DNA from: a virus
Lineage: Duplodnaviria > Caudoviricetes
Direction: 5' to 3' (one strand)
IMG/VR virus record: IMGVR_UViG_3300022179_001846
Coordinates: 1 to 56,876 of that record
Length of the DNA: 56,876 nucleotides
Shown: positions 21,142 through 53,410 of the stretch, one piece after another
Position numbering within the stretch: position 1 is the stretch's first letter
How the letters are laid out: each line of letters opens with the position of its first letter
The notes under the pieces: generated by a model
Seen by the model: only the letters and a program-made list of their open reading frames with translations
Databases searched by the model: none
What the model was told of the DNA's origin: nothing
Translations under genes and position numbers: made by a program

Positions 21142-22533
21142 CTAGGAAATTGCGCCGTCAGACTCAGTGACGCGCATGTACACTGTCCCTCCGGGCACCA
21201 GCACGCCGCCGCCCGTCAGAGTAGAGCCGATAGTGAGAGCCGTAGCCGATGCAACCTGATACGTCCCAATGACGCGAAATGAACTAGCGTGGGCGGCTAG
21301 GTTTGTGTACAGCATGTAGGCCGTGTTGAGCGTTGACGCACCGACGGTCACCGTCAAAGAATTGGTGGTGTTCGAGCCGCCAATAGACGGAATGTCGACT
21401 TCAACGGTCAGGATAGAAGTGGACCGGAGGGGCGTGTAGGAGAAGCTGAACGGGAATGCCGCGATGGCCTTCATCGTGACGTAGACGGGGTTGGCGGCGA
21501 CGGGCTGCCCGCTCGCGCGGGTGTAGTAGAGGCACCGCCAGTTGCCCGAGCCGTCGGAGACGAAGCCCGCCGTGTCGCCCGCCGCCGTGGTGATGTTCGC
21601 CGCCGTCGGCAGGATCAGCGACGTGGCGTTGTGGGTGAGCGTCAGCGCACCGGCGAAAACCACGTCGCGATAGATACCCGAGGCGACCGTGCCCATGCCG
21701 GTGATTGTCGTCGTGCCCGTGATGCGGACGTAGTTGGAGGCCGCCGCGCCGATGGCACAGGTCGTGGCCGAGGCCACGTCGACCCGCACGGCACCGTTGA
21801 TCGCGGCGGCCGTCATGGTGAGCGTGCTGCTGAGCGTGGCACCGGCGGCCGTCAGCAGCCCGGTGGTCGTGAGGGCGTTCGTCGTCTTGTTGAACACCAG
21901 ACCGGCGTCGCCGGCGAACACGCCGCCGTCGTTGAACTGGACCTGCGTGTCGGATCCGGCGGGGGCCGCCGCCGACGTCTGCGTCGTGTTGTCGGGGAAC
22001 ACCACGCCCCCCGTCGACGCATCGAGCGTGTGCGCCGTGAGGATCGTGCCGTCGAACGTCATGTTGGCGCTGCCCGCCAGCACGCCCGCGTTGTTGTACT
22101 GGACCTGCGTCGTGGAGCCGCCTGCCGAGGCCGTCGTGTCGTTGCGGACCATGCCGGTCGCCGTGCCGTCGCAGGAGATCTGGACGTTGTCACCGGCGTT
22201 GATCGTGACGTAGGTGCCGCCCGAGGCCGACTGCACGCGCACGCCATACCCGCCCGTCGTGCCGTTACGCACGACCCACTGCCCGCCGGTCGCCGCCGGA
22301 ACCGTGTAGGTGACGATGCCGCCGGGGGTGCCCGAGATCGACAGCGTGAGGGGTATGCACTGCGCCGCCGACAGGGCGACGGTCGTGCCGCCCAACCCGG
22401 TGGAGTTCAGCAGCGTGCTGCCGCCCAGCGCGAGGTCGATGTAGCCGAAGTTGGTGTTGAGGGGCCCGGTGCCCCACGTGTTGGCGTTGGAATTGTAGGC
22501 GGGCTGGTCGAGCCCCTTGTTGGGTGTCGTCAT
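21142..22533 (-). CDS. Tail fiber-like protein
   Basis: Gly/Thr/Ala rich; repeated GSTTQVQYNNAG / GSDTQVQFNDGG; LTHNATSLILP motif. Confidence 0.75.
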   Translation of the reverse strand: MTTPNKGLDQPAYNSNANTWGTGPLNTNFGYIDLALGGSTLLNSTGLGGTTVALSAAQCIPLTLSISGTPGGIVTYTVPAATGGQWVVRNGTTGGYGVRVQSASGGTYVTINAGDNVQISCDGTATGMVRNDTTASAGGSTTQVQYNNAGVLAGSANMTFDGTILTAHTLDASTGGVVFPDNTTQTSAAAPAGSDTQVQFNDGGVFAGDAGLVFNKTTNALTTTGLLTAAGATLSSTLTMTAAAINGAVRVDVASATTCAIGAAASNYVRITGTTTITGMGTVASGIYRDVVFAGALTLTHNATSLILPTAANITTAAGDTAGFVSDGSGNWRCLYYTRASGQPVAANPVYVTMKAIAAFPFSFSYTPLRSTSILTVEVDIPSIGGSNTTNSLTVTVGASTLNTAYMLYTNLAAHASSFRVIGTYQVASATALTIGSTLTGGGVLVPGGTVYMRVTESDGAIS

Positions 22534-24836
22534 TTCAGGGCCTCGTCGGCAATGGCGAGCGCCTTGGTGATGGCTTCATCAGGCTGCTCTAGGAGGGGTT
22601 CCGTCGTCGTGTTGTGGCCCTTCTTGGCCTTCTCCGCGGCGCGGATCAGCGACATCGCGATGCTGCCATGATCAAGCCGCCCGATCCGGCCGCCGGCCTT
22701 GCGCCCCGGGCGCGGCTCTGACTGCATGCCCGCCTGCGAGCGAGTGCCGGTAGCCGCGAGTTCGGCGAGTGTCGTCGTCACACGACCGAAGTAGGCGTTG
22801 GCAGCGGGATTGGACTGCAGGAGCGCGCCGAGCTTCGCCACATCGGCGGGGTCAGACGATTGCGCGAGACGAACAACCTCAGGCGCGATGCGCCGCTCGG
22901 CGGCGTACTTGATGCTCTTCGTCGCCTGATCGAAGGCGACACCGGCAAGGATCTTGGCGGCCGCGCCTGCGGGCAATCCCGCCGTGTAGGGGATCAGCTC
23001 GACCGCGCTGGCACCGATGGCTGCCGCGAGGCCGGCGTGGCCGTTCAGCCAGCTCTTCGGCGGTGCCGTGGCCATGATCGTCGAGGCGTTGCTCAACAGC
23101 TCGGTGTTGCGCGAGTAGCCGTGAAGCTGATTGTATCTGGCGTCGCCCAGCGCCGCGCGCAGTCGCTCGGCGTTCTCCGGGTGGGACAGGTACTTGACGA
23201 ACGTCTGCGGCGTTGCCTGAGCCTTGGTGAGCAGGGTGTCGCCCACGCCTCTGGCGAACAGCTCGCGCTCCTCGGGCGACATCGCCGCCAAGGTCTTCTT
23301 GATCTCGGCCGTCTGGAAACTGTTCGGTTTGGTCGCGAACTTGGTTCCCGCCTCAAGCGCATCCTCAGCCTGAAAGCCCACACGAGCGTTCGCGCGCGCG
23401 GCGTCGTACCCTTTCACCTGACTGTCGAGTTCGTGGAGAATCTCCTTGCGCCACGTATCGAGGTAGTGCGTGTCGCCTCCCGACCGCTTGAGTGTGTTGA
23501 TCTGGGCGTCGATGTCGCGTTTTACATGGTCCCAGAAGTTGAGATTGCCGGGGGTCGCCGCCATGGGAGGCCCTCCGAACGAGGGGGCCGCAATCGGCGG
23601 TTGGATCCCGAACTGAGGGTCCTCGGCGAGCTTCGTCACGCGGGCGATGGAAGGTTTGATGGCGTCGTATCTGGCCAGCTCTTCGAGACGCGGCGTCGTG
23701 ACTGCCGCCGCCGAAGGCTCTGCGCGCGCGAGACGGTAGAGCTGGTCGTTCTGGCGTTTGTGCGCGAGCTGTAGCGCCGTCATCTCGTCACCGGCGCGGT
23801 TGGTGAGGCCGAACGCGTCGGTGATGAACTGGCTGTTGGCCGTCCGCATCGCCTCGTTGCGCGCAAGAATACCTGCGTTGAGGCTCCCCAGCTCTCGTGG
23901 CGACATGCCGCCCATGCGCGACAACAGCTCCTCGGTACGCGGGCCGGCCATGTCGAAGATGCTCGGCGAGTGCCCCGCCTGATGCGCCTCCTCGATCTGC
24001 TGCGGCGTCATCTTCGCCTTGCCGTTGCGCAAGTCTTCCTGCAGCGCCTGCGCCAGCCGGCTCTCGGCTTCGGCGTTCTTGCCGGTGAAGGCGCGGATAC
24101 CCCCCGCCGTGCGCGCGGCGGCGCTGTTGGTCAGGACGGCTCCGAGGAACCGCGCGGGACCTTCGTAGTCGCCAGCTCCGAATGTCTTTGCGACATCGCC
24201 CGCGGCCTCACTACCGATGCCTGCAGCCGTGCCTATGAGCACCTGTTCAGCCGCCGTGCGACCGGGGCCGCCCGCCAGCGCGTTGACGCCCATGCGCGCG
24301 CCGCTTCCCGCGTACTGACCGGGCTTGGTCTGCGGCGTGTAGTCGAGGGCCGGTATCTTCGCGCGCAGGAGTTTCTCGGCTTCCTCGCTGGTCGGGGCGG
24401 AGGTGATGCCGAGGTCACCGCGTGAGCCGTACTTCTCCGCGTACTTCTTGGACTCGGGAGTTTCGAGGCTCTCCCACCACTTCGCGATGCTCTTCGGCAC
24501 CGTCTCGGGCGTGTGATTGCCCGGCAGCATGCCGATCTTGTCCGCGCCTTCGAGGGCCTTGCGGCCAACCCAGTCGAGGCCCTGACTGGCAAGTTCGCCC
24601 AACGTGCCGGGCATCGTGGCGATGTCGCCAAGGCCAAACACAGCCTGCGTTCCCGCGCTCTTGGCAATGTCTTCGGCGTAGCCCGGCTTCTTCGCCTCGC
24701 CCGCCGCCAACTCGAACGTGCTGCCACTAGGCGTCGCAGCAGGCGTAGCTTGCGGCTCTTGTGACGGCCAGCGTGTGCTGGTGGTAGCGCGGTCCTCAGA
24801 GTTGCCAGCGTCCAGCTCGAAACCCATCACTCCCAC
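22530..24836 (-). CDS. Internal virion / DNA ejection protein
   Basis: 768 aa, Ala-rich helical; follows the large ejection protein; C-terminal RKAGG motif. Confidence 0.65.
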   Translation of the reverse strand: MGVMGFELDAGNSEDRATTSTRWPSQEPQATPAATPSGSTFELAAGEAKKPGYAEDIAKSAGTQAVFGLGDIATMPGTLGELASQGLDWVGRKALEGADKIGMLPGNHTPETVPKSIAKWWESLETPESKKYAEKYGSRGDLGITSAPTSEEAEKLLRAKIPALDYTPQTKPGQYAGSGARMGVNALAGGPGRTAAEQVLIGTAAGIGSEAAGDVAKTFGAGDYEGPARFLGAVLTNSAAARTAGGIRAFTGKNAEAESRLAQALQEDLRNGKAKMTPQQIEEAHQAGHSPSIFDMAGPRTEELLSRMGGMSPRELGSLNAGILARNEAMRTANSQFITDAFGLTNRAGDEMTALQLAHKRQNDQLYRLARAEPSAAAVTTPRLEELARYDAIKPSIARVTKLAEDPQFGIQPPIAAPSFGGPPMAATPGNLNFWDHVKRDIDAQINTLKRSGGDTHYLDTWRKEILHELDSQVKGYDAARANARVGFQAEDALEAGTKFATKPNSFQTAEIKKTLAAMSPEERELFARGVGDTLLTKAQATPQTFVKYLSHPENAERLRAALGDARYNQLHGYSRNTELLSNASTIMATAPPKSWLNGHAGLAAAIGASAVELIPYTAGLPAGAAAKILAGVAFDQATKSIKYAAERRIAPEVVRLAQSSDPADVAKLGALLQSNPAANAYFGRVTTTLAELAATGTRSQAGMQSEPRPGRKAGGRIGRLDHGSIAMSLIRAAEKAKKGHNTTTEPLLEQPDEAITKALAIADEALK

Positions 24837-27800
24837 CTAGTCTTTCCAGTTTGCGGGTTGAGGCCCATATATCGCGCTTGCTTGAATTGGCCGTTACCGA
24901 CGGGGACCATGTACATCTGGCCCTCGGTGAGTTTCGACGGGATCGGTTTACCCTGCCGGTCGAGGGCGTCGTTGATATCGCCCAGCACGGCCGTGTTCTT
25001 GTACGTCTCTCCGATCCTCTTGATGAGGTCGGCCTCGTTCTTCGCGCCCCATTCCTGCGCCGCGCCGCCGCGGTCGATGTGGGCGCCGTAGCGTTGCATC
25101 TGGTCGTACAGCCACTTGTCGCGTTCCTTCGTCCATTCAGCCTTGGCCTTGAGCTGGGCGATGATGGCCTTGTTCGTGTTTGGCGGCAGATCGGGGTAGG
25201 CCGAGGCGTCGATCTGCGTGCCGAGTTGCATGTCGGTGCGCGTACCTGAGGAGCCGAAGCTGTCGTTGATCAGCTTGTAGGCGTCCTTGCGCGCCTTGTA
25301 GTACGCTTCGGGGTTCGACAGCATGGTCCGCACGTCAACGCCGGCGAGCTGCGCGATCAGCGAAGTGTACTTGTTGATCGTGCCAGCGGCAGGGCCCGAT
25401 TGCACTTCCTGAAGCGCCCTCGTCAACTCATCGATAGTGGCCAGTTGCGACGTGTGTTGCGTCTGCCGGGGTTCGTACGTGTTTCGCCATTTCGTGTTGT
25501 CGTCGACGCGCTCTACTTCCGAGCGCGCGTCGGACCAACCGGGCAGTGTCATGACGCCATTCTTCGTCGGCACCTTGCCAACGTCGAGCATCGTCGTCTG
25601 AATGCGATTGGCTTTTTCAAGCAGATCCTTGACGATTTGCCCGTTCGGGTCCGTCTGCGCCGCCTGCGCCGCGCGCTGACGCAGTACGTCGGGATCCTGC
25701 ATCGGGTCGATGTTCTGCTTGATCAACGCCCTCTGCTGGTCTGTCGTCTGCGCTCGCCGCGCCCACATCGGGATGTCCGACTGATCGCTCGCGGGTGCCG
25801 GCTGGCCGCCTACAGGCGTAGGCGGGCCGCCGCCGGGCGCGGCCGTCGGAGCGCCGCTGGCAGGCGCGGCCGTCGGAGCACCGCCGCCGGGCGCGGCCGT
25901 CGGAGCGCCGCTGGCAGGCGCGGCCGTCGGAGCACCGCCGCCACTACCCCCGCCGGTAAGCAGTTCAGCCGCCTCCTCCGGACTCTTGACGTATTTCCCA
26001 ATCAACCTGTTGATCTGACGCGAGAGGTTTTGGTACTGCTTCTGCAAGGGGTCAAGATCGACCCCCGGCACACCCTGCGAATTGGCGATCCGCGCGCCTA
26101 GATCAGTGTAGACGCCGTAAAGCTGGCGCGCGGCCGCGATGTCAGCGTTTTGCTGTTGAATATCGAGACCCTGCTGCTTGAAGCTGGCCCCCAATCCCGT
26201 CTGCGCGCCTTCGGCGAGGCCCTGACCGATGGCGACGCCAAGGTACGGCGACGGCGACGCGAGCATCTTGCCGATGCCGCTGACGGCCGGGAGCAGCCAG
26301 TTCTGATTGCGGCCCATCCAGTCGCCGGTGCGGGTAAAGAAATCGCGATCTTCCGGCGGCTTCGAGGAGCCCCCCGGCGCGCCCACAGGCGGCGCCAATC
26401 CCGCAGCGGTCTGCGCCTGCGGTGCCGTGCTGGGGCCCCCTGCTACGACGGGCGTAACGGCGGGCGGGTTGTTGCCGCCGACCGTGGCCACGTTGCGAGA
26501 GGCGAGCGGAGGCGCGACGGCAGGCGCTGAACCCGGCGGGTTGTAGCCGCTAAGATCGCGGTCATCGCGTGTGCGCTCTGCGGGGGAAACGCTTCTCGGA
26601 GGAATAGGAATGCTGGTCGGCGCAGGCATAGGAGAGCTGCCGCGTGCTTCAGCGTCGAGCGACGCCTTGACGTGGGGCTCAAGGGCAGGCGGCAGCTGAT
26701 GCTGCGGCAAGTTCATGCCGCCGAGGCCGCTGGGCCGTGCGAACGGCGCGCTGCGAACACCCCTCTGCAGCTCTTCCTCTGAGATACTCGGCACCACCGG
26801 CTGCGCCGCCGCGAGTTCCGCTTCCACCGCGCCGTCTGTCTGGTAGCCGTGGCGGGGCACGAGGCCGCCCGCCGCAAACCGGATAGGCATCTCGAAGTCG
26901 TTGAACATCTCGAAGTCGTCGTTCGCGTCGACAGGCGGCGGCGCTTCGACTTCAGCATCGTGAAGCGGCGGCGCGATGCCTGCGCTGCGCTGCGGCGGTG
27001 CCTCGGTGCGCATGTGCGCCTCGGCCGGCGGCGCGCCGCCGATGACCTTGCGGACGTAGTCTTCGGTCGACATGTTGGCGTCGCGCCGACCCTGACGACG
27101 CGCCTCGGCCAACGGAAGGTTGCTGTGCCACATCGAGGCGGCATCGGCGAGGTTGCCGTGCTGGTCGAGGAACTTGCCGAAGCGATGCTCGAAGACGCGC
27201 TCCTGCGCCTCCGGGCTCTTCAGGAATTCGGCGGGCGTCATGCGTCGTCCGAGGGCTTCCTCGGTCCAGCTCGGAATGTTGTTCGGCATCACCTGATATT
27301 TGCCGTGCGCGCGACCCTGCCCCGGCACGTCATGTTCGCCAAGAATGTCGTACCGGCCGCCGCTCTCGACGCGCGAGATCAGACGCTTGGCGTGCTCGAT
27401 GTCGGCCGCACCACCTCGGGCCAAGAAGCTCGAAGCGCCACCAAGGACACCACCGGCTAGCGCGCCCCACGGCCCAAACGTAGCCCCTGCCGACGCGCCA
27501 GACATCGCGCCCTTGAGCGCGCCCCCCGCGGGATCTTTCTTCTGGCCGCCGCCCTTATCGCTCATGTCGAGCTTGTGCCCGATCTTCTGGTCCTGCGACT
27601 TCATCGGGTCATCAGCGATATCTTCAATTATCGATTTGTCGTCACCGCCGGAATACGGAAGCGCCGGGTTGCTGCCCGTCAGACCGCCGCCTTCGTAGCC
27701 AATGCGGCCGCCGCGTGCGGCAAACATTGACATGCCTTCACCGAGGTCCGCGATGTCTTCCGTCGGCAACGCATCAAGCGACGCTACCGCGGTTTCGGGC

Positions 27801-29803
27801 GCAAGCCCGGATCCTGCGTCGGCAACCCGCGTCGGGGTGGCGGCACCGAGCCCGCTCGTCTGCGCTGGCGGTGCGCTCGTCTGCGCCGGCGCAGGCAGGT
27901 CGGTACTCGTGATCTTGTTGCCGCCAGTCGTAGCGCCGTCAGGCGACACGCCGCTAGGCTGACGGTCAAGCTGCTTCTGGGCCCATTTGTAAACGTCTTG
28001 GCCGCCCTTGTAGACATCCTCGCCAGTTCTGTAGGCCCCGACGGCATCCTTGACGCCGCCTATGGCCTGCGACAGGCCCGTGGACTGCTGTTGCTGCGGC
28101 AAGGACGGAAGCGAACCCTTGAGGAGGGGCGACGCTTTGGCGACACCCGGCGACCACGCTCCCGGCTTGTGGGGCAGTTTGCCGTTCGCGCCATGCGGCG
28201 TCGTCCCGCCCATGGGGTTGACCAACGACTGCAAGAGCTGTTGCGTGTAGGCGTCGACGCCCGGCGTCACTGCCCCCGCCGTGGCAAACGCGCGACGGGG
28301 CGCGAGCCCGCGCAGCATCTCGTCCACCTCCGGGTTCGCGCCCGGCACCGGGGTGCCGCCGCTCGCGAAGCCGAGGCCCGCCATGCTGGGATGCACGGCG
28401 CCGCCCTCCGACGACGGCATCAGGCCGCCGCCGTAGGCGCGCTCGGCGTGCTGGGTCGCCATGTCGTAGTCGACGGCCTTGATGCCCTCGGGCGTCTCGC
28501 TGACAGCCTCCGGGTGGTGCTTTTCGACGTCCTGCGCCGAGAGGCCGATTTGCGGCTGGTTCGAGCCCTTGTACTTGAACTTGATGATCTTCTGGCCGTC
28601 GTGGGTGCGGCCGATTTCGGTGATGTCTTCCTTGACGCGCTCGTCCGAGAAGAACGGCGTCGGCTGCCCGGTGACGCCGGATGTCGTGCTGCCGTAGAGC
28701 GGCCCGGTGCCCATCGCGATGTTCGCGAGGAACTGGGCGACCTGAAACGGGTACCCCTGCTGCTGCTGGTACTGGTTGTAGAGGGCCGCATTGAGCTGCT
28801 GCTGGGTCTGCTGCTCCAGCGTGCCGGCGCCAAGCAGCGCCTGACCGCTCGCCAGACCCGTCTGCGTGCCCATCTGGCCCAATCCGGCGAGGCTCTGCGA
28901 CACACCCTGCCCATAGCCGAGGAGGCCCTGCCCGAGGCCCTGCTGGGCCTGCGCAGCCGCCATGGGCTGCTGGAAGGCCTGCTGCCCGATCTGGAGGAGC
29001 TGGGGCGAGAGCTGCTGCATCGCGGCCCGGTTGGCCTGCTCGGCCCCGAGGCCTACGCCCTGCTGCTGCTGGGCCGCCTGCAGGGCCTGCCCGTAGCCTT
29101 GCGACAGGAGGCCCCCCTGAGCCTGCTGCGCCGCCAGACCCTGCTGGCGGGCCAGATTTGCGGCCGCAATCGAGCCTCTGTCGCCGCCGAAGGCGCCGCG
29201 CATGGCCTGTGAGCCCATGAGCTGGCTCTGCTGCTGCTGCTGCTGCTGGTACAGACCCTGCATCGTCGGTGCAACTACCGACTGCAGGTAGGGGTCCATG
29301 TACCGCCCGATGTCGAGCTGCCCCGGGTTCACCGACTGCGCACCGGCCAGCCCCGCCATCGTGGCCGCGCCCGTGTAGGGAGCCCCCGCCGCCTGCGCCG
29401 CGCCGATGTTCTGCCCCGCCTGCCCGTAGTAGGGGAGGGCCGCCTCGGCGGATCCTGTCAGGGCCGTCGTCGCCGCCTGCTGGTAGGGCTGGTAGCCCTG
29501 CCCCGCGTTGGCAATCTGGGCGGTGCCGGCCTGCTGAGTGGCCGTCAGCGGCGCGACGAACTGGCCCTGATACGGCTGGAACGGCTGCTGCGCGACCTGC
29601 TCAGCGCGGGCGTTGACGGCGTTGTAGCGCGCCTGAACTTCCGGTGGAATTGTCGTCGTCTGCTGCTGGTAGGTCGTGCCGCCCGAGCCGCCCTTGCCGC
29701 CACCGAACGCAAGATGCCGCCGCGCAACCGGCGGGGCTCCGTCGCGGCCCATGAAGTCCTCGAAGGGGGCCCCGTCGTTCCATATCTTGCGTTCAGAGAA
29801 CAT
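24827..29803 (-). CDS. Large DNA ejection protein with internal peptidase S74 chaperone and lysozyme-like domain
   Basis: Q/G-rich N-terminus; SDERVKEDI...IGLSAQDVE..PEAV...VDY (S74); ISRVESGGRY...GKYQVM (transglycosylase-like). Confidence 0.78.
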   Translation of the reverse strand: MFSERKIWNDGAPFEDFMGRDGAPPVARRHLAFGGGKGGSGGTTYQQQTTTIPPEVQARYNAVNARAEQVAQQPFQPYQGQFVAPLTATQQAGTAQIANAGQGYQPYQQAATTALTGSAEAALPYYGQAGQNIGAAQAAGAPYTGAATMAGLAGAQSVNPGQLDIGRYMDPYLQSVVAPTMQGLYQQQQQQQSQLMGSQAMRGAFGGDRGSIAAANLARQQGLAAQQAQGGLLSQGYGQALQAAQQQQGVGLGAEQANRAAMQQLSPQLLQIGQQAFQQPMAAAQAQQGLGQGLLGYGQGVSQSLAGLGQMGTQTGLASGQALLGAGTLEQQTQQQLNAALYNQYQQQQGYPFQVAQFLANIAMGTGPLYGSTTSGVTGQPTPFFSDERVKEDITEIGRTHDGQKIIKFKYKGSNQPQIGLSAQDVEKHHPEAVSETPEGIKAVDYDMATQHAERAYGGGLMPSSEGGAVHPSMAGLGFASGGTPVPGANPEVDEMLRGLAPRRAFATAGAVTPGVDAYTQQLLQSLVNPMGGTTPHGANGKLPHKPGAWSPGVAKASPLLKGSLPSLPQQQQSTGLSQAIGGVKDAVGAYRTGEDVYKGGQDVYKWAQKQLDRQPSGVSPDGATTGGNKITSTDLPAPAQTSAPPAQTSGLGAATPTRVADAGSGLAPETAVASLDALPTEDIADLGEGMSMFAARGGRIGYEGGGLTGSNPALPYSGGDDKSIIEDIADDPMKSQDQKIGHKLDMSDKGGGQKKDPAGGALKGAMSGASAGATFGPWGALAGGVLGGASSFLARGGAADIEHAKRLISRVESGGRYDILGEHDVPGQGRAHGKYQVMPNNIPSWTEEALGRRMTPAEFLKSPEAQERVFEHRFGKFLDQHGNLADAASMWHSNLPLAEARRQGRRDANMSTEDYVRKVIGGAPPAEAHMRTEAPPQRSAGIAPPLHDAEVEAPPPVDANDDFEMFNDFEMPIRFAAGGLVPRHGYQTDGAVEAELAAAQPVVPSISEEELQRGVRSAPFARPSGLGGMNLPQHQLPPALEPHVKASLDAEARGSSPMPAPTSIPIPPRSVSPAERTRDDRDLSGYNPPGSAPAVAPPLASRNVATVGGNNPPAVTPVVAGGPSTAPQAQTAAGLAPPVGAPGGSSKPPEDRDFFTRTGDWMGRNQNWLLPAVSGIGKMLASPSPYLGVAIGQGLAEGAQTGLGASFKQQGLDIQQQNADIAAARQLYGVYTDLGARIANSQGVPGVDLDPLQKQYQNLSRQINRLIGKYVKSPEEAAELLTGGGSGGGAPTAAPASGAPTAAPGGGAPTAAPASGAPTAAPGGGPPTPVGGQPAPASDQSDIPMWARRAQTTDQQRALIKQNIDPMQDPDVLRQRAAQAAQTDPNGQIVKDLLEKANRIQTTMLDVGKVPTKNGVMTLPGWSDARSEVERVDDNTKWRNTYEPRQTQHTSQLATIDELTRALQEVQSGPAAGTINKYTSLIAQLAGVDVRTMLSNPEAYYKARKDAYKLINDSFGSSGTRTDMQLGTQIDASAYPDLPPNTNKAIIAQLKAKAEWTKERDKWLYDQMQRYGAHIDRGGAAQEWGAKNEADLIKRIGETYKNTAVLGDINDALDRQGKPIPSKLTEGQMYMVPVGNGQFKQARYMGLNPQTGKTRWE
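25827..25942. repeat. Coding tandem repeat, 27-bp units (54-bp period), APTAAPASG/APTAAPGGG
   Basis: Four copies of GCGCGGCCGTCGGAGC. Confidence 0.85.
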
Positions 29804-30360
29804 CAGTGTTCAGCCTTGTTGGTGCCGCCCGGCGGCAGTTTGTTGGTCACCCCGGTCTCGGCCCCGCACAACCAATAGGCACCGGAGGGCTTCCCGAAGA
29901 TGCGCTCGTAGAGCCGCACCTTCCCTTCCGTCCGGCTGTTTGAGAGGATGCCAATCATCAAGGGCATCTCAAGCTTCGCCGCGGCCGCCTTGGCGAACTC
30001 GCACAGCTTGCGCGCGCGGCCGCCCTTGGCGCTGCGATACTCCGGGTGGACGAACACGCCGCGCTCCTCGAGCACGATCTGGTCGCTGTACCAGAGCTTG
30101 CAGGTGCGGAGCAGGATGCCGCCCTCGAAGTGGTCGGCGCCGGGAGCCCCGATCACGCCGCAGATGCCGCCGTCGCGGTTGAGCGCGGGCCACACTTCGG
30201 CGAGGAGCTTCTGCGGGTCAGGCTGTACAAAACCATTCTCCTCGCTGCCTTGCAGGCAGAGGTCCATAAATTGGTGAACGTCTTCGGGTGTGCCGACGCG
30301 CACTCTGATGTCGGTCATCTGCTTCTCCTCAAGCATTGACGGGGTTGAGGGGGTACTCAT
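29803..30360 (-). CDS. GNAT-like acetyltransferase
   Basis: VFVHPEYRSAKGGRARKLCEFAK acetyl-CoA-binding-like motif; start could be at MTDIRV. Confidence 0.7.
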   Translation of the reverse strand: MSTPSTPSMLEEKQMTDIRVRVGTPEDVHQFMDLCLQGSEENGFVQPDPQKLLAEVWPALNRDGGICGVIGAPGADHFEGGILLRTCKLWYSDQIVLEERGVFVHPEYRSAKGGRARKLCEFAKAAAAKLEMPLMIGILSNSRTEGKVRLYERIFGKPSGAYWLCGAETGVTNKLPPGGTNKAEH

Positions 30361-41367: not shown

Positions 41368-41378
41368 CAGGCACCTCG

Positions 41379-41406
41379 AAAAAGAGGACGGGGGCCGAGG
41401 CCCCCG
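41379..41406 (-). terminator. Probable intrinsic terminator
   Basis: CGGGGGC-CGAG-GCCCCCG hairpin with a downstream T5 run on the minus strand. Confidence 0.5.
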
Positions 41407-41413
41407 CCGTAGG

Positions 41414-43684: not shown

Positions 43685-43697
43685 TGGTCATTACTCC

Positions 43698-44492: not shown

Positions 44493-44511
44493 CAGACTGA
44501 GAGACGGACCC

Positions 44512-45905: not shown

Positions 45906-45912
45906 GCTGTCC

Positions 45913-46305
45913 TCACCACACACGGTCGGGCTGGTCGACCTTGCCCCTGATCGCCGTGTCGTCGATCAGTCTGCAGGCGACGCCGTTGACGTTGATCGCC
46001 CAGCCATCACTGGGCCTGAAGATGACCCAGTCGCCCTCGTTGATGCTGGCGTCGGCAAACCACTCACCGCGCTCGTCAACGAAGGCCCTCGGACCCTTTT
46101 TCACGACAAGGCCCGCCTTACCCTGAATGCGGTCCTCAGACGTGTAATTGTCCGTCAGGTAGATACCCGACTTGGTCCGGTTGGGCCGCACGTAGATCGC
46201 GACCAGAACCGCGTTATTGAAGACGTCGACACCGGACGTGTCGCCAAGCGTGGCGAGCAGTTCCTTCTTCGGGTCAACCTCGTGTTTCATAGCCATCTGT
46301 GGCAT
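45913..46305 (-). CDS. groES: GroES-like co-chaperonin
   Basis: VLV...RTKSGIYL...GLVVKKGP..F....GDWVIF...RLIDDTAI. Confidence 0.8.
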   Translation of the reverse strand: MPQMAMKHEVDPKKELLATLGDTSGVDVFNNAVLVAIYVRPNRTKSGIYLTDNYTSEDRIQGKAGLVVKKGPRAFVDERGEWFADASINEGDWVIFRPSDGWAINVNGVACRLIDDTAIRGKVDQPDRVW

Positions 46306-46306
46306 G

Positions 46307-46507
46307 TCAGCTCCTCTCTGCGCCTTTAGTGATCGCCTCCGCTTCCTCGTAGATGTCGAGCGCCTCGCGGAGGCCTTGGAAGCGCCCGGTTTCGCGAGCG
46401 TACTCACGCTCGGTCATCGTCCCGTTCATCACGTTGTGCGTGATGACGGTCATGCGTTCGGCGGCAAGGTCATTGAACTTGCGGCCCAGTCTCGTGTCGA
46501 ACTTCAC
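46307..46507 (-). CDS. Small hypothetical protein
   Basis: GTG at 46507 with GGAGGAG RBS; EYARETGRFQGLREAL. Confidence 0.7.
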   Translation of the reverse strand: MKFDTRLGRKFNDLAAERMTVITHNVMNGTMTEREYARETGRFQGLREALDIYEEAEAITKGAERS

Positions 46508-46583
46508 TGGCTCCTCCCAGTGGCCGAAGGTGGGACGCTGCGCCGTGAGGAGCCGTCGCAGCGTCCCGGTCGCCGGCCAGCGA

Positions 46584-48035
46584 TTATCGCTTGTGCTTCT
46601 GGATCGCGATCTTCTCGATGCGGCCCATGCCGCCCAGAGCGCCCGCGTCCATGTCCTTGTAGGAGCGCGCGCGGCCGCCCGAGAGGCGCCCCACACGCTT
46701 GCCGTGCTCGATCTCGACCTTCTCCAGACGTCCCATGCCGCCCAGAGCGCCGGCGTCCATGTCCTTGTAGGACTTGTAGGCGGCGCGGCCGCCGCTCTTG
46801 CGCGGCATCGGGGGCATGCCCGGCGGGCCGCCCAGACCCGGCGGCGGGCCGGGAGGAGGCATCGGCATCGGCGGGGGCGGGCCAGCGCCCATGCCCGGGG
46901 GCACGATGGGCGGAGGCGGCATCGGCGGCAGCGTCGGCGCCTTCGGCATCATCGCCTGCTGGTCGTCGGGCTTCCCGGCGTTGATCGAAATGACGATGTT
47001 GGTCTTGCCCTTGGCGCGGCCGCCGCGCTTGCGCTCGACGCGGCCGCCCTTCTCGTAGCCAAGGACGTCGCGCAGCTTCTTCGTGCTGTTGCCAATCGGC
47101 GTCTCTTCTTCGGTCCACCCCTTGTCCTTGTCGTGGACTTCACTGACAGCGTGAAGAACGCCGTTCTTGTAAGAGTGCTTCAGGCCATGCTCCTTGAGCG
47201 CGCGGATCATGTGCGCGTCAGAGGCGCGAGCCGGTGCGCCCGAGAAATAGCCTTCATCATCGTCCGCGCCGCCTCCCTTGGCCTTGGCGAGGCGGCCGCC
47301 GGCGGGGCGCGTGCCGCCGTAATAGGTGCCGCCGCCCTTGGCCTTCTTGGGCATCATCGTGCCGCCGGGCGGGCTCGTCTTATCGCCCTGACCCTCGGCG
47401 GGGCCCTTGCCCGTCTGCAGCTTCTTCCAGTCTTCGTACTTGGGCTCGGGCGCAGGCGTCTCAGCTTCGCCGCCGGCGGCCTTCTTGGTGCGGCCGCCGC
47501 TCTTCTTACCCTCGATGAGCTTCTTGGCGAGCATCACGGGGGAGAGCGCCTCCAGCAGGCCGCCGCCTTCCTTGTGGGCGCGGCCGCCCTTCTTCAGCTT
47601 GATGTCTTCCTTCTTGCCGCCGTGCATGTTCTTGTCGTGCTGACGCAGGGCCTTCTTCACGAGTTGCTTGTCCTGCTCGACGTCGCCGCCGCTCTTGTAG
47701 CCGCCGACGTGCTTGTCGCCGCCCTCGCGGGCCTCGTTCGCCTTCTTCTCGTTGCGGTTGATCAGGTCGGTCACCAGCGAGCGGCCGCCGCTCTTGCGCT
47801 GCTTGCGGTCGGCGCGCATGGGGGCGGGGCCGCCCTCGCACTTCTCGATGACCTTGCCGCCCTTGCGGAAGGCGCGCCGCGAGATCGGACGCATGCCCGT
47901 CTTGACGTCGGTGTTCATCATCTCGGGCGGCGTCCAGTCCGAGGAATCGACCTTGGCCCTCGGCTCGCCCTTGCCACCCATGCGGTTGGCCTTGGCCTTC
48001 ATGGCCGCGCGTGCGGCCTTCGACATCTCACTCAT
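46584..48035 (-). CDS. Basic low-complexity xxGG-repeat protein with polyproline tract
   Basis: About 13 xxGG motifs; duplicated SYKDMDAGALGGMGR(L/I)EK; AAGGAG RBS. Confidence 0.8.
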   Translation of the reverse strand: MSEMSKAARAAMKAKANRMGGKGEPRAKVDSSDWTPPEMMNTDVKTGMRPISRRAFRKGGKVIEKCEGGPAPMRADRKQRKSGGRSLVTDLINRNEKKANEAREGGDKHVGGYKSGGDVEQDKQLVKKALRQHDKNMHGGKKEDIKLKKGGRAHKEGGGLLEALSPVMLAKKLIEGKKSGGRTKKAAGGEAETPAPEPKYEDWKKLQTGKGPAEGQGDKTSPPGGTMMPKKAKGGGTYYGGTRPAGGRLAKAKGGGADDDEGYFSGAPARASDAHMIRALKEHGLKHSYKNGVLHAVSEVHDKDKGWTEEETPIGNSTKKLRDVLGYEKGGRVERKRGGRAKGKTNIVISINAGKPDDQQAMMPKAPTLPPMPPPPIVPPGMGAGPPPPMPMPPPGPPPGLGGPPGMPPMPRKSGGRAAYKSYKDMDAGALGGMGRLEKVEIEHGKRVGRLSGGRARSYKDMDAGALGGMGRIEKIAIQKHKR

Positions 48036-48716
48036 CTATTTTCTCCTTGTAGCCGCGAGCGCACGCTCGACAATGTTGTTCGTTCGACCGCCACGTTTGA
48101 ACGCGCTGCCGCCGCCGGCGCTGCTGGCACCGCCGTCGCCGCCCGCGCCGTCAGCCCCTGCTGCGCCTGCCCCTCCGGTGCCGCCGCCGGCGTCGGCAGC
48201 GCCACTGCTGCTGCCGTCGCCTCCCATCAACGAAGCCATCCAGCTTCCGTAGTCGAACGCGGGGGCGTTCGGGATCCCGACGGGGGCCGCTGCCGTCGGT
48301 GCCGCGGGTTCCGCTGTCGTCGGTGCCGCGGGCGTCGCGGCTTTCGGGAACAGGCCCTCGTAAGTCTTGCCGTTCAGCGCCTGCGCCATCATGCGCTGGT
48401 AGGCATCGTTGGGGGCCTGCCCGAACATTGCCTGATAGTTGGCGGGTGCCTGCTGCTGCTGAGGAGCCTGCGCCGCAACCTGCTGGTTGAGGTTGCTGAA
48501 GGATCCTTTCAGGTTCTGCAGGAGCTGGTCGACGCCACCGCCGTCCGCGTAGCCAGCGCGGCCACCATTCCTGAAGTCGACACGGCCGCCGCGCTTGCGC
48601 GGTTCCGGCAATTCCCACCATTCAAGGCGGTGTTCCCCGGATTCGTGATGGTGATAGTGATCGTGGTTGTGAAACTGGGCGTGAAAGTCGTCAATTTCGA
48701 GCTTGGGGCGCTTCAC
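48036..48716 (-). CDS. Low-complexity xxGG-motif protein, His-rich N-terminus
   Basis: GTGA coupling; RKRGG, FRNGG, YADGG, FKRGG. Confidence 0.7.
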   Translation of the reverse strand: MKRPKLEIDDFHAQFHNHDHYHHHESGEHRLEWWELPEPRKRGGRVDFRNGGRAGYADGGGVDQLLQNLKGSFSNLNQQVAAQAPQQQQAPANYQAMFGQAPNDAYQRMMAQALNGKTYEGLFPKAATPAAPTTAEPAAPTAAAPVGIPNAPAFDYGSWMASLMGGDGSSSGAADAGGGTGGAGAAGADGAGGDGGASSAGGGSAFKRGGRTNNIVERALAATRRK

Positions 48717-51700
48717 TTCCCGCCTCCTGTGTCGTTCGTCTTGACTGGGGGTGCCGCGCGCTGAGTCTTGATCGTGACTATGCGGTTGGTCGGGAGCGTG
48801 TCGCCCAACATGGGCTTGCCATCCTTGCGCAGACCAACACTCGCGCCCCGCATGTAAGTGCCCTTGGCCGTTTTCTGTAGTCCGGGGTCGTACTTCACGA
48901 AGAAACCCTTTGAGTCAACGTGCGCGTTCGCCGTTGTGCCGGTGGCTTTCTTGTTTTTGAGGCCAACAATGACGCCGTCGGCACCGCGCGGCTGAATGTC
49001 AAGCGGCCGAAAGTCGTGCTTGTCACCGTTCACAACCTTGTAGTGCTTCCCAGTCTCTTCGTCGTGAACCATCTCGGGTAGATGTTCGCGATCACTAAAC
49101 GCCATAGCGACGTTCGACCCCGTGTCGAGGCGCTTGCGCATCTGCTTCCAGTTGCTGTGCGGGTTGTCGACACCGTCTTGCGACACGCCGGTCGACGAGT
49201 AGGTGTAGTGATGGTTTGGCGCAATCGGATTCGTGTTGTTCTTGGTATAATCGTAGAACGTCACGTCGGGATGGTTCTCGATGATCGCCTTGTGGATGCG
49301 CGGGTTGAGGTCCGACAACACATTGAGGCGGATGCCGAGGTGGTTGCCGTTCATCGCGGCCTCGCGCTTGGCGGACTCGATCTCGTCGTTGAGGCGCACT
49401 GCGAAGTTCTCGGGGTCGCGCAGCATGCCTATCGTCTTCTTCAGGCTGTTGAGGCGCGGCCCCTTGAAGGCGCTGAGATCCTTGCCGCCGCCGACCTTGA
49501 AGTAATTGCCTGACGTCTTGCCGAGGCACTCTGCCTTGCACGATGCGGAGTTAGGGCAAGTCGTAAACTTGCCTTCTTCGTAAGCAGGAGCCAACGCCAG
49601 ACCCACAGTCTCAACGCCGCGCCCATCAGGCAGCTGCACCGGCTCTTCATCACCGTAGCCTGTCTCCGACTTCAGCAATTTGGCATTCTTGGAAAGCAGT
49701 GGCACCGGGCGGCCCGTCTGCAGGCGCCCGATGTGCGCGCCCAACGAGTCGGCGGCGCGCTTGCTGTTAGCGATGCGGTCTGCAGGCTTCAACGCCAGAT
49801 GCTCGGAGATGCCTTTGTCGAAGGCATCCGAGAGAGACTTGACGCTGGTCTTGCCGACCTCGGTCGGTTGCGTCGTGATGTTGCGCAGCGTCGACTGTGC
49901 CTGCGCTATGGGGCTGCGCGGCTGGGCCAGCGACGTAAGATCGAGGGCGCGAGATACAACCGGGTTGTCGGCCCCGCCACCGTCAGCGTAACGCTGGCGC
50001 ATTCCTACATCTCCACCGCGCTTGAATGAGTTGAAGCCGTTGCCCTTGATGCTGTCGCGCATCTGCGGCGTGACGTCGAGGCTGTGCAGAGGTGCGGGCT
50101 GCGCCAGCTTGTCGCCGACATCGAGATCCCGCTCGGATTGCTCCCTGCGAGCATGCTCCATGTGATCGTTCTGAAGATCAGGAGCCAGTCTGTTCCACGC
50201 GGCCTCGGTCGGTGAATCGATGTCGTCTACGTTATGCGCCGAAGTGATCGCGCGCTGTCTGACGGCGTTGCTGTCAGGGGCGGCATTCAAACTATGTGCG
50301 TGCAGGTTCACCTTCGCCTGCGGGTCGTGCTGCTGCGCGAGAGCCTGCAGGCGCTTCGGCAGGATGTTGTCGTAGTAGCCGCGCATGCCCGCGCCGCCCA
50401 TCTTGAGGCCGTCGCCCTCAAGCTCGTGGTAGAATTCGCCGCCCAGCCGGCCGCGACCCTCGTAGCGTTGGGGGTTCTGCTTCAGGATTCGGTCGGCGGC
50501 CTCCTTGCCGATGTGCTTGGCCAGATCTTCCGGCTTCACGTCGTTGTGGTCGATGCCCCTGCCGTCGTGCGTCTCCGCGTTCAGGTAGCCGATGTCGGGG
50601 AAGTAAGTGATGTTCTTGACCTGACTGCTCAGGTCGTACCGCTTGTTCTGCTCGTCGCCCGGCGTGACGACGATCTTGTCGTAGCCGCCGTGCGCGGCTT
50701 CGTGCAGGACGCGCTTCAGTGCGAGGTCGGTCCACTTCTGAGTGTTGTCGACGTAGGGGCCGCGAGGGATGCCGGGCTTGTTCGGTGTATCAAAGTCGCG
50801 AACTTCGAGCTGCCCCTTCAAGCTATCGGGCAGCGTCTCGAAATACTTCTGCGCCTCTTCCTGTGTGTCGAAGGGTTGCGACCTGTTACCAGAGCGCCGG
50901 TTGTAGACCTCGTACTTGCTTTGGCTGGGCTCGGCGAAACCCTGATCACGGCCCTGCTGGCCCCAGTCGCTCTGGGCTTCCTCAAGGTGGAGGATCTTCT
51001 CGCCGCGGGGGCCTTTGCGGTCGGACATGCGGACGTGCGCGAGGACGTTAGGCTGCTCCCAGTGCCCCGCTGTGAAATGATCGGGGGCTTCGCGCAACGC
51101 GTCCATGGCCGCGTGGTACTCTTTTTGCGCCGGCGTCAGACGCGACATGATCTCTTTCGCCGCTTCAGGATCGCTATTATCCCCATATTCAGCGACCAGA
51201 CGGTCTTTCTCTGCGCGCGCGGTTTTCGCTCTTGCCGCCAGCGCCGTGCGCTCGCTCGGCGTGTGCAGCAGCACCTCGCGGTAGTTCTCCCCGCCGGGGA
51301 GGGTCAGAGTGGGGTCGCCGCCGAACTTGGTATCCTCGCCGCCAAGCTGCGTTTCCCCAAAGGGAACCGCATTATCCTCAAGGTGCTTGATCACCTCCTC
51401 TCGGGGAAGGGCCTTCGAGCCCAACGTGTCGAACTTGGAGTGCTTCAGCTCGTCGGGCTTGATGCCCGGCATCGCCGCGTACTGCTGCGGCGTGGCCTTC
51501 TTCTGGCCTTTGGCGCCGATGATCTTGGCCGCGCCGCTGTGGAGCTTGAAGGGCGGGACAGGGCCGCCGGTGGCGCGTTTGGCGCGCGACCAGTATCCGT
51601 ATTCATGCAAGCTATCGCCGTTCGTATACACCTCGTCGGCGCGCACGGTCTTGCCGATTACCTTGTACTTGCCGCGCAACGCACTCTCACCGTGCGCCCG

Positions 51701-53410
51701 CGCATACGCCGGATTCGTCGTGACCCAGTCACCGTGGTTGATGGTGTCGCCAGCAGTCTTAGGCACCGCGCGAAAAATAGGAATTTGCGCTTCAGGTTTA
51801 CCCCTTACTTCATGCGCAATTTTCAGCGTCTGGCGATCCATGGAAGTATCACCAGTGCCGTAGTAGCGGGCCCCCTGCGGACCGTACACATCATCAGGGT
51901 AGACCGTGCCGTTCGCCGTCAGATCGTGCAACGGCGCGCCGCCGTCGGGACCGGGAGGCCGGTGCCCGCCGCCGTAGTCGTCGACGCCGCCGCCATCAGC
52001 ATAGTGCGAGGGGCCGATGTACTTGCCGCCGCCGGGGCCGCTGTATCCGCCGCCGCCCGGAGACGGGTCCATGCCCCCGCCGGGGCCCGGGTAGATGTTG
52101 GCGATGCGACGCAGCAGGTTGCGCTGGTCGCGAGCGATCATGAGGGCGCGCTTGGTGGCGCTGCCGCCTGCGGCCTTGCCGATGTCGGCCTCGCTCGGAT
52201 CGAACGTGCCGCGGTTGCCGATGGCGCTCTTGATCTGCGTCGGATCCTTCAGGATGACGGCGACGTTTTGCCCTTCGGGCGTCCAGCTGTCGTAACCCTG
52301 CGCGCGGAGCTGATCGAACCACTCCGACTGCGCCTTTTTGTAGTTCTGCGCGCCCAGAACGCCTTCAGGAAGCGGCCCCGTGTGCGACTTGCCCAGCTTC
52401 AGGTGAACCGGGATGACGCGGCTGCGTGTGTTGGTGGGGATGAACTTGCCGCCTTCGTACTTGTGACCCTGACTGTCGTTGTTCTCGGCGTACATCGACG
52501 CGTCCTTCGGGTCGCGTGCGAACCACGCGCCGTGCCGGCCGATCTTGAACTTCGAGAAGTCGACGTCCTTCGACGTGCCGTGATACCACCGCTCGGGGGA
52601 GCCGCCCCACTGCTCGAACGCCTGCTGGCGCCCGGGGCTGCCGACCGCATGACGGACATCACCGCCCCGCGCGTAGTTCACGTGCATGTCTTCGGGGTCG
52701 TACTGCCCCCGGTTGCCGATAGCCGACTTGATCTGCGCGCGCCCCGGCGGGTGCAGCGCGATGACCTCCTCGTCCTTGCTGGGATGCTCGCCGATGCCGT
52801 GGTCGTCATAGAACGCCTCGTCCTTCGCCGTGGCGTCGAACCCGGCCCAGAGGATCCCGTCATAGCCGTCTTCCAAAAGCATCTTGCGCGACTCTGACGA
52901 GATCAGCAGCGGGAACTCTCCGCTGCCTTTGGCGTAGCTCTGTCGAGCCCAGTCGCGCATGCTCTTGTTGTCGATCACGAGCGGGTTGCGGATGTCGGCA
53001 TGCACCGGCATCACGTTGGCACCGCTCTTAAACTTGTCCTCGAACCCGCCGACGTGATGCCCCGCCGGCTGCTTGTCGGGGTACGGCGACAGCCACGTCG
53101 CGGGGCCGCTCGGCATCTCGTTCGCGGGGTTCGGCCCGCCGGGGATGAACGTGTCGAAGCTCTTGGGCGTGGCGTGGTAAAGCCGCAGGGGGTTGCCCTC
53201 GCCGTCGCGGATCTTGCTGTTGCCGTGCCAGCGGTTGAAGTTCTCCTCGCGCTCGGGCGTGCCGGGAGGAGAGAAGCTGCCGTGGCCCTCGCGCGCCATC
53301 TGGTCGGTCTTCCACGCCGCGCGCGCGTCGGGGTCCATCGAGGCGTAGGTCGACGGAACCTTGAGCGGCTCCGACGCAATCATCAAGGCGCGGCGGACGT
53401 CCTTAGCCAT
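48713..53410 (-). CDS. Large polyvalent protein (ADP-ribosyltransferase-like domains, LPD-like domain, GP88-like C-terminus)
   Basis: YHATPKSFDTF and YHGTSKDVDFSKF each ending QIKSAIGNRG.(Y/F)DP; FRAVP..INHGDWVT; GGENYREVLL..LEEAQSDW; CPNSASCKAEC..RLNVLSD..FYDYTK. Confidence 0.8.
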   Translation of the reverse strand: MAKDVRRALMIASEPLKVPSTYASMDPDARAAWKTDQMAREGHGSFSPPGTPEREENFNRWHGNSKIRDGEGNPLRLYHATPKSFDTFIPGGPNPANEMPSGPATWLSPYPDKQPAGHHVGGFEDKFKSGANVMPVHADIRNPLVIDNKSMRDWARQSYAKGSGEFPLLISSESRKMLLEDGYDGILWAGFDATAKDEAFYDDHGIGEHPSKDEEVIALHPPGRAQIKSAIGNRGQYDPEDMHVNYARGGDVRHAVGSPGRQQAFEQWGGSPERWYHGTSKDVDFSKFKIGRHGAWFARDPKDASMYAENNDSQGHKYEGGKFIPTNTRSRVIPVHLKLGKSHTGPLPEGVLGAQNYKKAQSEWFDQLRAQGYDSWTPEGQNVAVILKDPTQIKSAIGNRGTFDPSEADIGKAAGGSATKRALMIARDQRNLLRRIANIYPGPGGGMDPSPGGGGYSGPGGGKYIGPSHYADGGGVDDYGGGHRPPGPDGGAPLHDLTANGTVYPDDVYGPQGARYYGTGDTSMDRQTLKIAHEVRGKPEAQIPIFRAVPKTAGDTINHGDWVTTNPAYARAHGESALRGKYKVIGKTVRADEVYTNGDSLHEYGYWSRAKRATGGPVPPFKLHSGAAKIIGAKGQKKATPQQYAAMPGIKPDELKHSKFDTLGSKALPREEVIKHLEDNAVPFGETQLGGEDTKFGGDPTLTLPGGENYREVLLHTPSERTALAARAKTARAEKDRLVAEYGDNSDPEAAKEIMSRLTPAQKEYHAAMDALREAPDHFTAGHWEQPNVLAHVRMSDRKGPRGEKILHLEEAQSDWGQQGRDQGFAEPSQSKYEVYNRRSGNRSQPFDTQEEAQKYFETLPDSLKGQLEVRDFDTPNKPGIPRGPYVDNTQKWTDLALKRVLHEAAHGGYDKIVVTPGDEQNKRYDLSSQVKNITYFPDIGYLNAETHDGRGIDHNDVKPEDLAKHIGKEAADRILKQNPQRYEGRGRLGGEFYHELEGDGLKMGGAGMRGYYDNILPKRLQALAQQHDPQAKVNLHAHSLNAAPDSNAVRQRAITSAHNVDDIDSPTEAAWNRLAPDLQNDHMEHARREQSERDLDVGDKLAQPAPLHSLDVTPQMRDSIKGNGFNSFKRGGDVGMRQRYADGGGADNPVVSRALDLTSLAQPRSPIAQAQSTLRNITTQPTEVGKTSVKSLSDAFDKGISEHLALKPADRIANSKRAADSLGAHIGRLQTGRPVPLLSKNAKLLKSETGYGDEEPVQLPDGRGVETVGLALAPAYEEGKFTTCPNSASCKAECLGKTSGNYFKVGGGKDLSAFKGPRLNSLKKTIGMLRDPENFAVRLNDEIESAKREAAMNGNHLGIRLNVLSDLNPRIHKAIIENHPDVTFYDYTKNNTNPIAPNHHYTYSSTGVSQDGVDNPHSNWKQMRKRLDTGSNVAMAFSDREHLPEMVHDEETGKHYKVVNGDKHDFRPLDIQPRGADGVIVGLKNKKATGTTANAHVDSKGFFVKYDPGLQKTAKGTYMRGASVGLRKDGKPMLGDTLPTNRIVTIKTQRAAPPVKTNDTGGGK

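Follow-up and report, generated by a model that had tools for sequence, protein, structure and literature searches.

The viral record IMGVR_UViG_3300022179_001846 (Caudoviricetes) comprises 56,876 bases of ~65% G+C and is rated complete, and the window analysed here spans the whole of it. Early and replication genes occupy roughly positions 1-21,000, while the late genes form a long minus-strand run from the large terminase (56016-56789) down to 21142. Proteins of this late operon are punctuated by a short peptide motif, [KRYF][AKRE]xGG, which is the subject of this work. Our analysis confirmed the motif as a genuine and conserved mark of the joints between exchangeable modules, and relatives swap, insert and split modules at these seams. 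After the terminase, the gene order is portal, a 1565-amino-acid polyvalent protein, Gly-rich proteins of 226 and 483 amino acids, a Cpn10-like protein, a coiled-coil scaffold-like protein, two unassigned open reading frames (ORFs), the capsid protein (42770-43684) and a basic protein of 99 amino acids, followed by adaptor, tail and lysis genes, and then by a 206-amino-acid protein (hereafter the 206-residue carrier), a GNAT protein, a 1658-amino-acid ejection protein and a 768-amino-acid protein (Table 1). Judged by the portal, the nearest named phages are only ~30% identical (Pelagibacter phages HTVC027P and HTVC023P, Roseobacter phages CRP-901 and CRP-902, and Caulobacter phage RW), and metagenomic relatives are many, with 431 portal matches.

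Frequency and conservation of the motif

The initial annotation had counted about 35 copies of the motif in at least seven late proteins. Using the strict pattern, we found 33 matches in 7 of the 29 late ORFs (distribution in Table 1) and none in the other 22; all the copies named as examples are present in the genes given, and the ejection protein also has AARGG and LARGG, which fall outside the strict pattern. The motif is absent from the portal and from the capsid protein (four GG dipeptides), as had been stated.

Such a count could be a chance product of Gly-rich, low-complexity sequence. Several of the proteins that carry the motif contain 15-16% Gly, GG dipeptides per se are over-represented in the late proteins (201 versus 133), and the pattern was chosen after viewing the data, having been fitted by eye to this same sequence, so that a shuffle test overstates its significance. 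However, shuffles of whole proteins gave 5.5 ± 2.4 expected matches and shuffles inside 30-residue blocks 5.9 ± 2.4, and 33 was reached in 0 of 2000 rounds of either kind. The late-versus-early comparison proposed by the initial annotation pointed the same way, with only 1 match in the 31 early ORFs against 1.7 expected. The basic form R/K-K/R-x-G-G-R/K gave 13 matches in the basic proteins against 1.6 expected. Since the shuffles never reach the count, the frequency of the motif is not due to Gly-rich composition, the very origin that the initial annotation had named as fatal to its own proposal. As the pattern was fitted to its own sequence, support was sought independently, in conservation among relatives and in homology breakpoints. 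The motif positions are conserved in relatives and lie at homology breakpoints, and a chance origin is accordingly very hard to credit.

For the consensus, we tallied all GG dipeptides of 26 polyvalent-type ORFs taken from the window and from relatives, which gave 315 unique contexts. Position -3 is enriched for Y and F (3.7 and 4.4 times), position -2 for A and K (2.4 and 2.8 times), and V is 4.3 times enriched two residues past the GG. The consensus of the seam is thus a bulky or basic residue, Ala or Lys, any residue, Gly-Gly, any residue, and Val or Ile. A composite form, consisting of two motifs 8 residues apart, occurs in the 226-amino-acid, polyvalent and ejection proteins.

A further check that the initial annotation had suggested, in related phages, showed that the motif is retained there. 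It is found again in the proteins encoded next to the portal of Pelagibacter phage HTVC027P, at a locus of 35% G+C; in these proteins the strict pattern is only mildly enriched (5 matches versus 1.6, reached by 51 of 2000 shuffles), and the value for a broader pattern, which was picked afterwards, is 0 of 2000. Caulobacter phage RW, a distant relative by its portal, has neither the cargo genes nor the motif. Because the motif is kept from 35% to 65% G+C, it is the peptide that is conserved and not the DNA, which argues for selection on the protein.

Among the basic proteins of the window, the 99-amino-acid protein is the product of a real gene, with 127 relatives detected by tblastn, and two of its three motifs are present in 26 of 26 aligned sequences. 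The longest ORF of the adjoining DUF6321 protein (41092-41460, minus strand) overlaps the 3' end of this gene; its Pfam match begins at residue 43, and the true start is probably further in. The fast-evolving 483-amino-acid protein, probably an internal head protein, has more than 3000 relatives, none of them named; it has no Pfam domain, and no relatives were found in the PDB. In a 17-sequence alignment its conserved islands include the motifs at 59, 83, 111, 116, 188, 234, 338 and 415, and its GG residues are retained more often than other residues in the seven orthologues that are most distant (20 of 51 versus 76 of 432, Fisher p 0.0007). Several of its motif copies lie in regions of varying copy number. 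The C-terminus of the protein (46584-46850, minus strand) contains a tandem-duplicated unit of ~38 residues, in which S-Y-K-D-M-D-A-G-A and G-R-L/I-E-K come after a basic G-G motif, and this unit is conserved even in the most distant orthologues.

Module borders, inserts and protein ends

The polyvalent protein stands beside the portal in 20 related loci as well. Its modules follow the order ART-PolyVal (Pfam, residues 270-403, 2.1e-26), a ParB-C-like PHROG module, an unnamed module of 520 amino acids and GP88 (Pfam, residues 1239-1488, 4.6e-19), and PHROG matches cover residues 55-239, 476-608 and 1255-1491. The initial annotation had placed its motifs between domains, which holds for six of the seven sites relative to the Pfam and PHROG matches, while the seventh (residues 1304-1308) lies within GP88. 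We compared the protein by tblastn with 80 related loci, which gave 80 high-scoring segment pairs (HSPs), leaving out those of more than 97% identity and ends cut by contig ends. In the resulting counts, for which the related loci are not independent samples, 100 of 142 HSP ends were no more than 12 residues away from the nearest of the seven motif sites, compared to 15.8 ± 13 upon random placement of seven sites (100 reached in 0 of 5000), and 14 of 38 distinct breakpoints were near a site, compared to 4.1 ± 2.3 (1 of 5000).

Similar borders were seen in other proteins. The 226-amino-acid protein has a gene of its own here, but in 8 of 21 complete related ORFs its tail closes the large polyvalent protein at the C-terminus. 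Its tblastn matches to relatives start at residues 37-51, where the motifs cluster, and gene splits in relatives fall a few residues past the G-G. The 768-amino-acid protein was matched in 12 related loci: in eight of these only its tail is found, behind unrelated bodies, with the match starting at residues 705-713, i.e. at RKAGG, while three loci match from residue 565 and one over the full length.

The 206-residue carrier belongs to a family of 3147 members (E <= 0.001, near-length search) with a further 453 longer forms. We retrieved 240 members and parsed 230, of which 138 have no insert and 92 carry one longer than 20 residues, always placed after the N-terminal helical hairpin and ahead of the conserved core, at the site of the first motif. 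A motif stands at the left edge of the insert in 85 of the 92, at both edges in 46 and at neither edge in 7. The inserted domains include ART-PolyVal (6 among the 120 longer forms listed), a methyltransferase, PF18823 and NUDIX. The suggestion in the initial annotation that modular domains are strung together at the motif is therefore well founded, as both homology breaks and cargo inserts coincide with the seams.

In 62 sequences of the carrier family, G44, G146 and G147 never change, in contrast to the variable linker next to them. Many His, Asp, Ser and Arg residues of the core are also invariant, e.g. in G-R-T-D-H-L at residues 58-63, which suggests an active or metal site. The AlphaFold2 (AF2) model shows two repeats of a beta-hairpin with two helices at a mean predicted local distance difference test (pLDDT) of 65.7, with the motif region at low confidence (pLDDT <50 at residues 41-45 and 101-148). 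Nothing in the PDB matched this model (best Foldseek E 2.9), no sequence relatives were found in the PDB, the ESM Atlas gave only unnamed viral clusters, and no tape-measure PHROG was matched.

These observations raise the question of whether the seam is read at all. It could be a passive linker or recombination seam, a flexible joint that is inherited with the cassettes and whose similarity aids in-frame exchange, and the homology breaks at the motif, the duplicated motifs that flank half of the parsed inserts and the low model confidence of the carrier's motif region would all agree with this. However, specific flanking residues are conserved, the carrier glycines do not vary, DNA-level homology is not what is kept across the range of G+C contents, and the motif also occurs at protein termini, where a linker would be superfluous. 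We thus consider a passive seam unlikely.

In the ejection protein, a conserved leader of ~33 residues is followed by G-G-G-K-G-G, a Gln-rich N-domain, an internal S74 domain and motif-separated segments that include a lysozyme-like part. Of 7 orthologues, between 4 and 6 retain any one of the named motif sites. Homology breaks occur near motifs at 472 and 993 and away from motifs at 612, 653, 1021 and 1139, so that the association between breaks and motifs is only partial in this protein. The S74 domain, after which RAYGG comes, matched its Pfam profile with 26.1 bits (cut-off 22), and its S-D-x-R-x-K site, with Ser as residue 386 (nucleotides 28646-28648), is kept in 7 of 7 orthologues, which indicates that the ejection protein is a polyprotein by an ordinary self-cleavage mechanism. 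The domain is unusual in being internal, with ~1200 residues beyond it, rather than C-terminal.

Two features were missing from the initial annotation: this S74 domain, and an amphipathic helix of the R-A-L type, I/V-x-R/K-A-L-x-I/L-A/T, which often accompanies the motif. The helix occurs in 4 copies in the late proteins compared to 0.41 expected (0 of 1000). In relatives, 17 of the 20 ORFs that come first behind the portal have a looser form of it among their first 25 amino acids, and 10 of 21 complete ORFs have it among their last 25, for which random windows give 0.1-0.2; 16 of the 21 complete ORFs have a GG within their last 30 amino acids, compared to 5.9 expected. With G-G at C-terminal ends and the helix at N-termini, the internal joints resemble a tail (G-G) fused to a head (helix). 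The presence of motif and helix at genome-encoded termini favours a second alternative, in which the seam peptide and the helix form an uncut handling or docking tag that is bound by a shared partner for module loading or threading; candidates would be chaperones, the portal or the tail channel, and factors of the host envelope encountered upon ejection. Conservation on both sides of the G-G, unlike at many cleavage sites, also agrees with such a tag, for which the binding partner is only hypothetical. A complex prediction of the portal with the first 45 polyvalent residues scored 0.00, which gives no answer and counts neither way.

Table 1. Features of the late operon discussed in the text, with positions in the window and numbers of strict matches to [KRYF][AKRE]xGG
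Feature	Position	Strand	Strict matches	Remarks
Polyvalent cargo protein, 1565 amino acids	48713-53410	-	7	Start overlaps the portal stop
Polyvalent motif sites	52661-52675, 52163-52177, 51989-52003, 51563-51577, 50012-50026, 49976-49990, 49487-49501	-		
226-amino-acid Gly-rich protein	48036-48716	-	4	Terminal R-A-L-type helix
483-amino-acid protein	46584-48035	-	11	Basic (isoelectric point 10.1), Gly/Pro-rich; sites mostly R/K-K/R-x-G-G-R/K
99-amino-acid protein	41414-41713	-	3	Basic (isoelectric point 10.9); G+C fraction at third codon positions 0.83
206-residue carrier	30360-30980	-	2	Helical hairpin, RATGG (30846-30860), module 1, KAEGG (30540-30554), module 2
Ejection polyprotein, 1658 amino acids	24827-29803	-	4	PHROG 'DNA ejection protein' and 'virion structural protein'
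Ejection motif sites	28427-28441, 28355-28369, 27707-27721, 27683-27697, 27410-27424, 26864-26878	-		
S74 domain (self-cleaving intramolecular chaperone)	28502-28648	-		PF13884, residues 386-434, E 1e-05
768-amino-acid virion protein	22530-24836	-	2	Last ~57 residues, from RKAGG (22689-22703), form a constant tail
R-A-L-type helix, polyvalent N-terminus	53375-53398	-		
R-A-L-type helix, internal in the polyvalent protein	49934-49957	-		A few residues past the YADGG junction
R-A-L-type helix, 226-amino-acid protein	48048-48071	-		Extreme C-terminus
R-A-L-type helix, 768-amino-acid protein	22548-22571	-		Extreme C-terminus
Portal	53403-55793	-	0	Pfam SU10_portal; 7 GG dipeptides, none in motif context
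Cpn10/GroES-like gene	45913-46407	-		Within the head module, between cargo genes and scaffold-like gene
GNAT acetyltransferase	29803-30360	-		Acetyltransf_7 and Acetyltransf_1 both below Pfam cut-offs; PHROG acetyltransferase

Cleavage in known systems and the search for a protease

The reading that we put first, with somewhat less than even confidence, is that the seam is a processing signal cut by a protease that is not recognisably encoded by the phage. It is the one best supported by analogy, ahead of the uncut tag and then of the passive seam, and the short N-terminal leaders that precede the motif in many relatives were counted in its favour. In the passages of Linares et al. 2023 (PMC10038345) on the T5 tape-measure protein pb2, this protein matures to pb2* and pb2C by a cut after R1127. 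In GenBank AY543070, R1127 opens R-A-E-G-G, one of only two pattern matches in 1219 amino acids, and the 92 residues beyond R1127 agree with the length of pb2C in the corresponding part of PMC12617516. On this account the cut, between R and A, falls within the motif, and the released fragment carries an enzymatic part. As an ejected protein pb2 is comparable to the proteins of the window, which are probably ejected too; it differs in being a siphovirus tail protein, and the catalyst of its cut is unknown in these sources. The title of an older study cited in this context speaks of host involvement.

Lambda gpH is processed to gpH* and gpHC, losing a ~14-kDa C-terminal piece from a Gly-rich region, with the catalyst given as unknown in the passage concerned (PMC12617516). 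Its only two pattern matches, at 733 and 778 (F-A-T-G-G and Y-A-T-G-G-Y-V), lie in the Gly-rich C-terminal region, so the gpH cut lies in a region that is Gly-rich and motif-bearing, as in the proteins of the window, although its exact site, in that source, is unmapped. In P22 gp7, according to a note in GenBank BK000583 and the relevant lines of PMC4992974, 20 N-terminal residues are removed by the host oligopeptidase A, and the cut falls directly before K-G-G-K-G-G. The gp7 protein is an ejection protein of a podovirus without a prohead protease and, like the ejection protein here, has a leader before a Gly-rich K-G-G stretch, although the two proteins gave no BLAST match and fall in different PHROGs. 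An oligopeptidase could hardly reach the internal joints of a 1565-amino-acid protein. The likenesses to T5, lambda and P22 exist at the level of the motif only and say nothing direct on this phage.

For polyvalent proteins as a class, proteolytic release of domains has been proposed, with embedded peptidases of zincin-like, assemblin-like, LonC and DD types, in the relevant passages of Iyer, Burroughs, Anand, de Souza and Aravind 2017 (PMC5512222); the words 'linker' and 'glycine' do not occur in these passages, nor is the seam peptide described in them. The polyvalent protein here resembles the class in joining unrelated effector domains in one chain, in lying next to the portal and in presumably being delivered with the DNA, whereas the peptidase domain, common but not obligatory in the class as far as those passages go, is not recognisable in it. 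No description of the seam motif was found by full-text searches of the main articles in the literature.

The initial annotation had compared the di-glycine sites with those of ubiquitin/SUMO-type, adenovirus and African swine fever virus (ASFV) proteases. Adenain, ASFV pS273R, coronavirus PLpro and the C39 bacteriocin peptidases process polyproteins or leaders, and their sites contain G-G and are cut after it. In contrast, the T5 cut, in the report cited above, precedes A-x-G-G. Enzymes of these kinds were not detected in the window, nor was a JAB domain, and this part of the initial annotation found no support.

Several results weigh against cleavage at the seam. Searches with Pfam on 36 ORFs, PHROGs on 17 and NCBIfam on 6 gave no peptidase except S74, and the JAB families PF14464 and PF01398, tried because lambda gpK is reported to have a JAB domain, were not matched when the complete record was searched in all six frames. 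Neither C39 nor clan CE was matched in the 36 ORFs scanned with Pfam. In the polyvalent protein, neither Pfam nor PHROGs showed an embedded peptidase family, and a single HExxH at residue 903, within the module at 613-1135, is not conserved in 13 orthologues. The folds of the 196- and 206-amino-acid proteins match no protease. The motif also lies just 2-4 residues before C-termini that the genome encodes as such, where a cut would have little effect, which fits the tag better, and 6-residue windows at eight basic motifs of the 483-amino-acid protein showed no significant conservation (732 of 5000). Of the known systems, the C-terminus of pb2 showed no homology to the carrier profile, gpH 687-853 gave only a weak hhalign match to the 62-sequence profile (21 columns, E 0.0064, probability 5.9%), and the gp7 cut lies in a different register from that of T5 relative to the G-G. 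For this phage and its close relatives, cleavage is thus argued by analogy.

The ORFs between the portal and capsid genes were considered as sources of a prohead protease, and comprise Cpn10 followed by three without a family. One of them, the 196-amino-acid ORF between the scaffold-like and capsid genes, was tried as the protease and rejected, as its AF2 fold (mean pLDDT 68.3) gave no protease match; the best Foldseek E was 0.75 and the VIA Z did not exceed 3.4, all rows being chance matches of winged-helix and GNAT-like types, although a new fold would still be compatible with an absent match. Pfam, PHROGs, NCBIfam and fold searches therefore agree with the initial annotation, which had recognised no canonical prohead protease.

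The negative protease searches, apart from S74, are in turn a point for the uncut tag, and since the motif occurs in tape-measure as well as head-internal proteins, one can conceive of a single partner for all ejected proteins. On the other hand, the only event mapped at such a motif, in the T5 report cited, is a cut, and if the tag served head loading, tail tape-measure proteins should not have it. Together, the T5 site and the flanked inserts favour cutting, while the terminal copies of the motif favour a tag, which we regard as possible but less probable than cleavage. The presence of the motif in tail tape-measure proteins, which never enter the head, also argues against a purely head-packaging signal, and the motif marks proteins that are likely ejected, rather than shell proteins. 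The T4 capsid-targeting sequence and the encapsulin cargo-loading peptides are short transferable terminal peptides that address cargo inside an HK97-fold shell, the T4 tag being removed by the prohead protease. They are not known to show sequence likeness to the motif, which is also found in tape-measure proteins and at internal joints; the R-A-L-type helix, and often the G-G, shares their terminal position, but any binding by it is only putative.

The surrounding operon and the role of the seam

Further observations concern the rest of the record. The large-terminase ORF was matched only by the C-terminal part of terminase profiles, and an open-ended minus-strand ORF at 2-874 lies at the opposite end of the record from the terminase region (56016-56876), and the linear record may represent a circularly permuted sequence, opened in or close to this region. 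The SU10 adaptor domain occurs in two paralogous genes ~5 kb apart (34238-34963 and 39747-40439, both minus strand). A Glyco_hydro_19 (chitinase class I-like) match at 35503-36081 (minus strand) suggests that this ORF encodes an endolysin, and the family-A DNA polymerase match is split in two stretches within a 958-amino-acid ORF (13398-16274, plus strand). The Cpn10/GroES-like gene is placed likewise in MW202675, Caulobacter phage RW and Pelagibacter phage HTVC027P; the loop of its product reads T-K-S-G-I-Y-L here, with one Gly, and has two Gly in relatives (K-T-K-G-G-I/L).

These neighbours allow other specific readings of the seam. It could mimic the GroES mobile loop and recruit the host GroEL, acting with the phage's own GroES-like protein, whose gene sits in the head module here and in distant relatives and whose loop, in relatives, contains the K-G-G seen above; or the lysine of K-x-G-G could be a substrate of the GNAT protein, whose gene holds its place beside those of the carrier and the ejection protein in 7 of 12 loci. 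However, Ala is as common as Lys at position -2, and GroES uses a hydrophobic triplet after the G-G that the motif does not have. Both readings are improbable.

Returning to cleavage, the proteins with motif-bounded modules, namely the polyvalent, ejection, 206-residue carrier and 768-amino-acid proteins and the three Gly-rich, mostly basic proteins, are most likely carried in the particle of this podovirus and ejected. A host protease, or a phage protein of unrecognised fold, would cut the seam, by analogy with T5 pb2 just before its A-x-G-G part, and the modules would be freed during assembly or after ejection, while the ejection protein would additionally cut itself at the S74 site. A broader proposal, which is doubtful at present, is that a common 'ejected-protein code' exists, in which seam-bounded cassettes, from the tape-measure proteins of lambda and T5 to podovirus cargo, are cut by one, probably host-supplied, protease. 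If true, it would explain the maturation of gpH and pb2 as well as the release of injected effector modules in phages without a prohead protease.

Phages deliver anti-defence enzymes chiefly by way of polyvalent and ejection proteins, and a seven-residue seam in thousands of uncultured phage proteins offers a concrete, mutable handle on them. It makes testable what cuts gpH and pb2, whether strings of injected effectors are cut apart, and whether foreign cargo can be inserted at the seam, for which the 206-residue carrier family provides a natural precedent. The seam could also help to predict from sequence which proteins a phage ejects.

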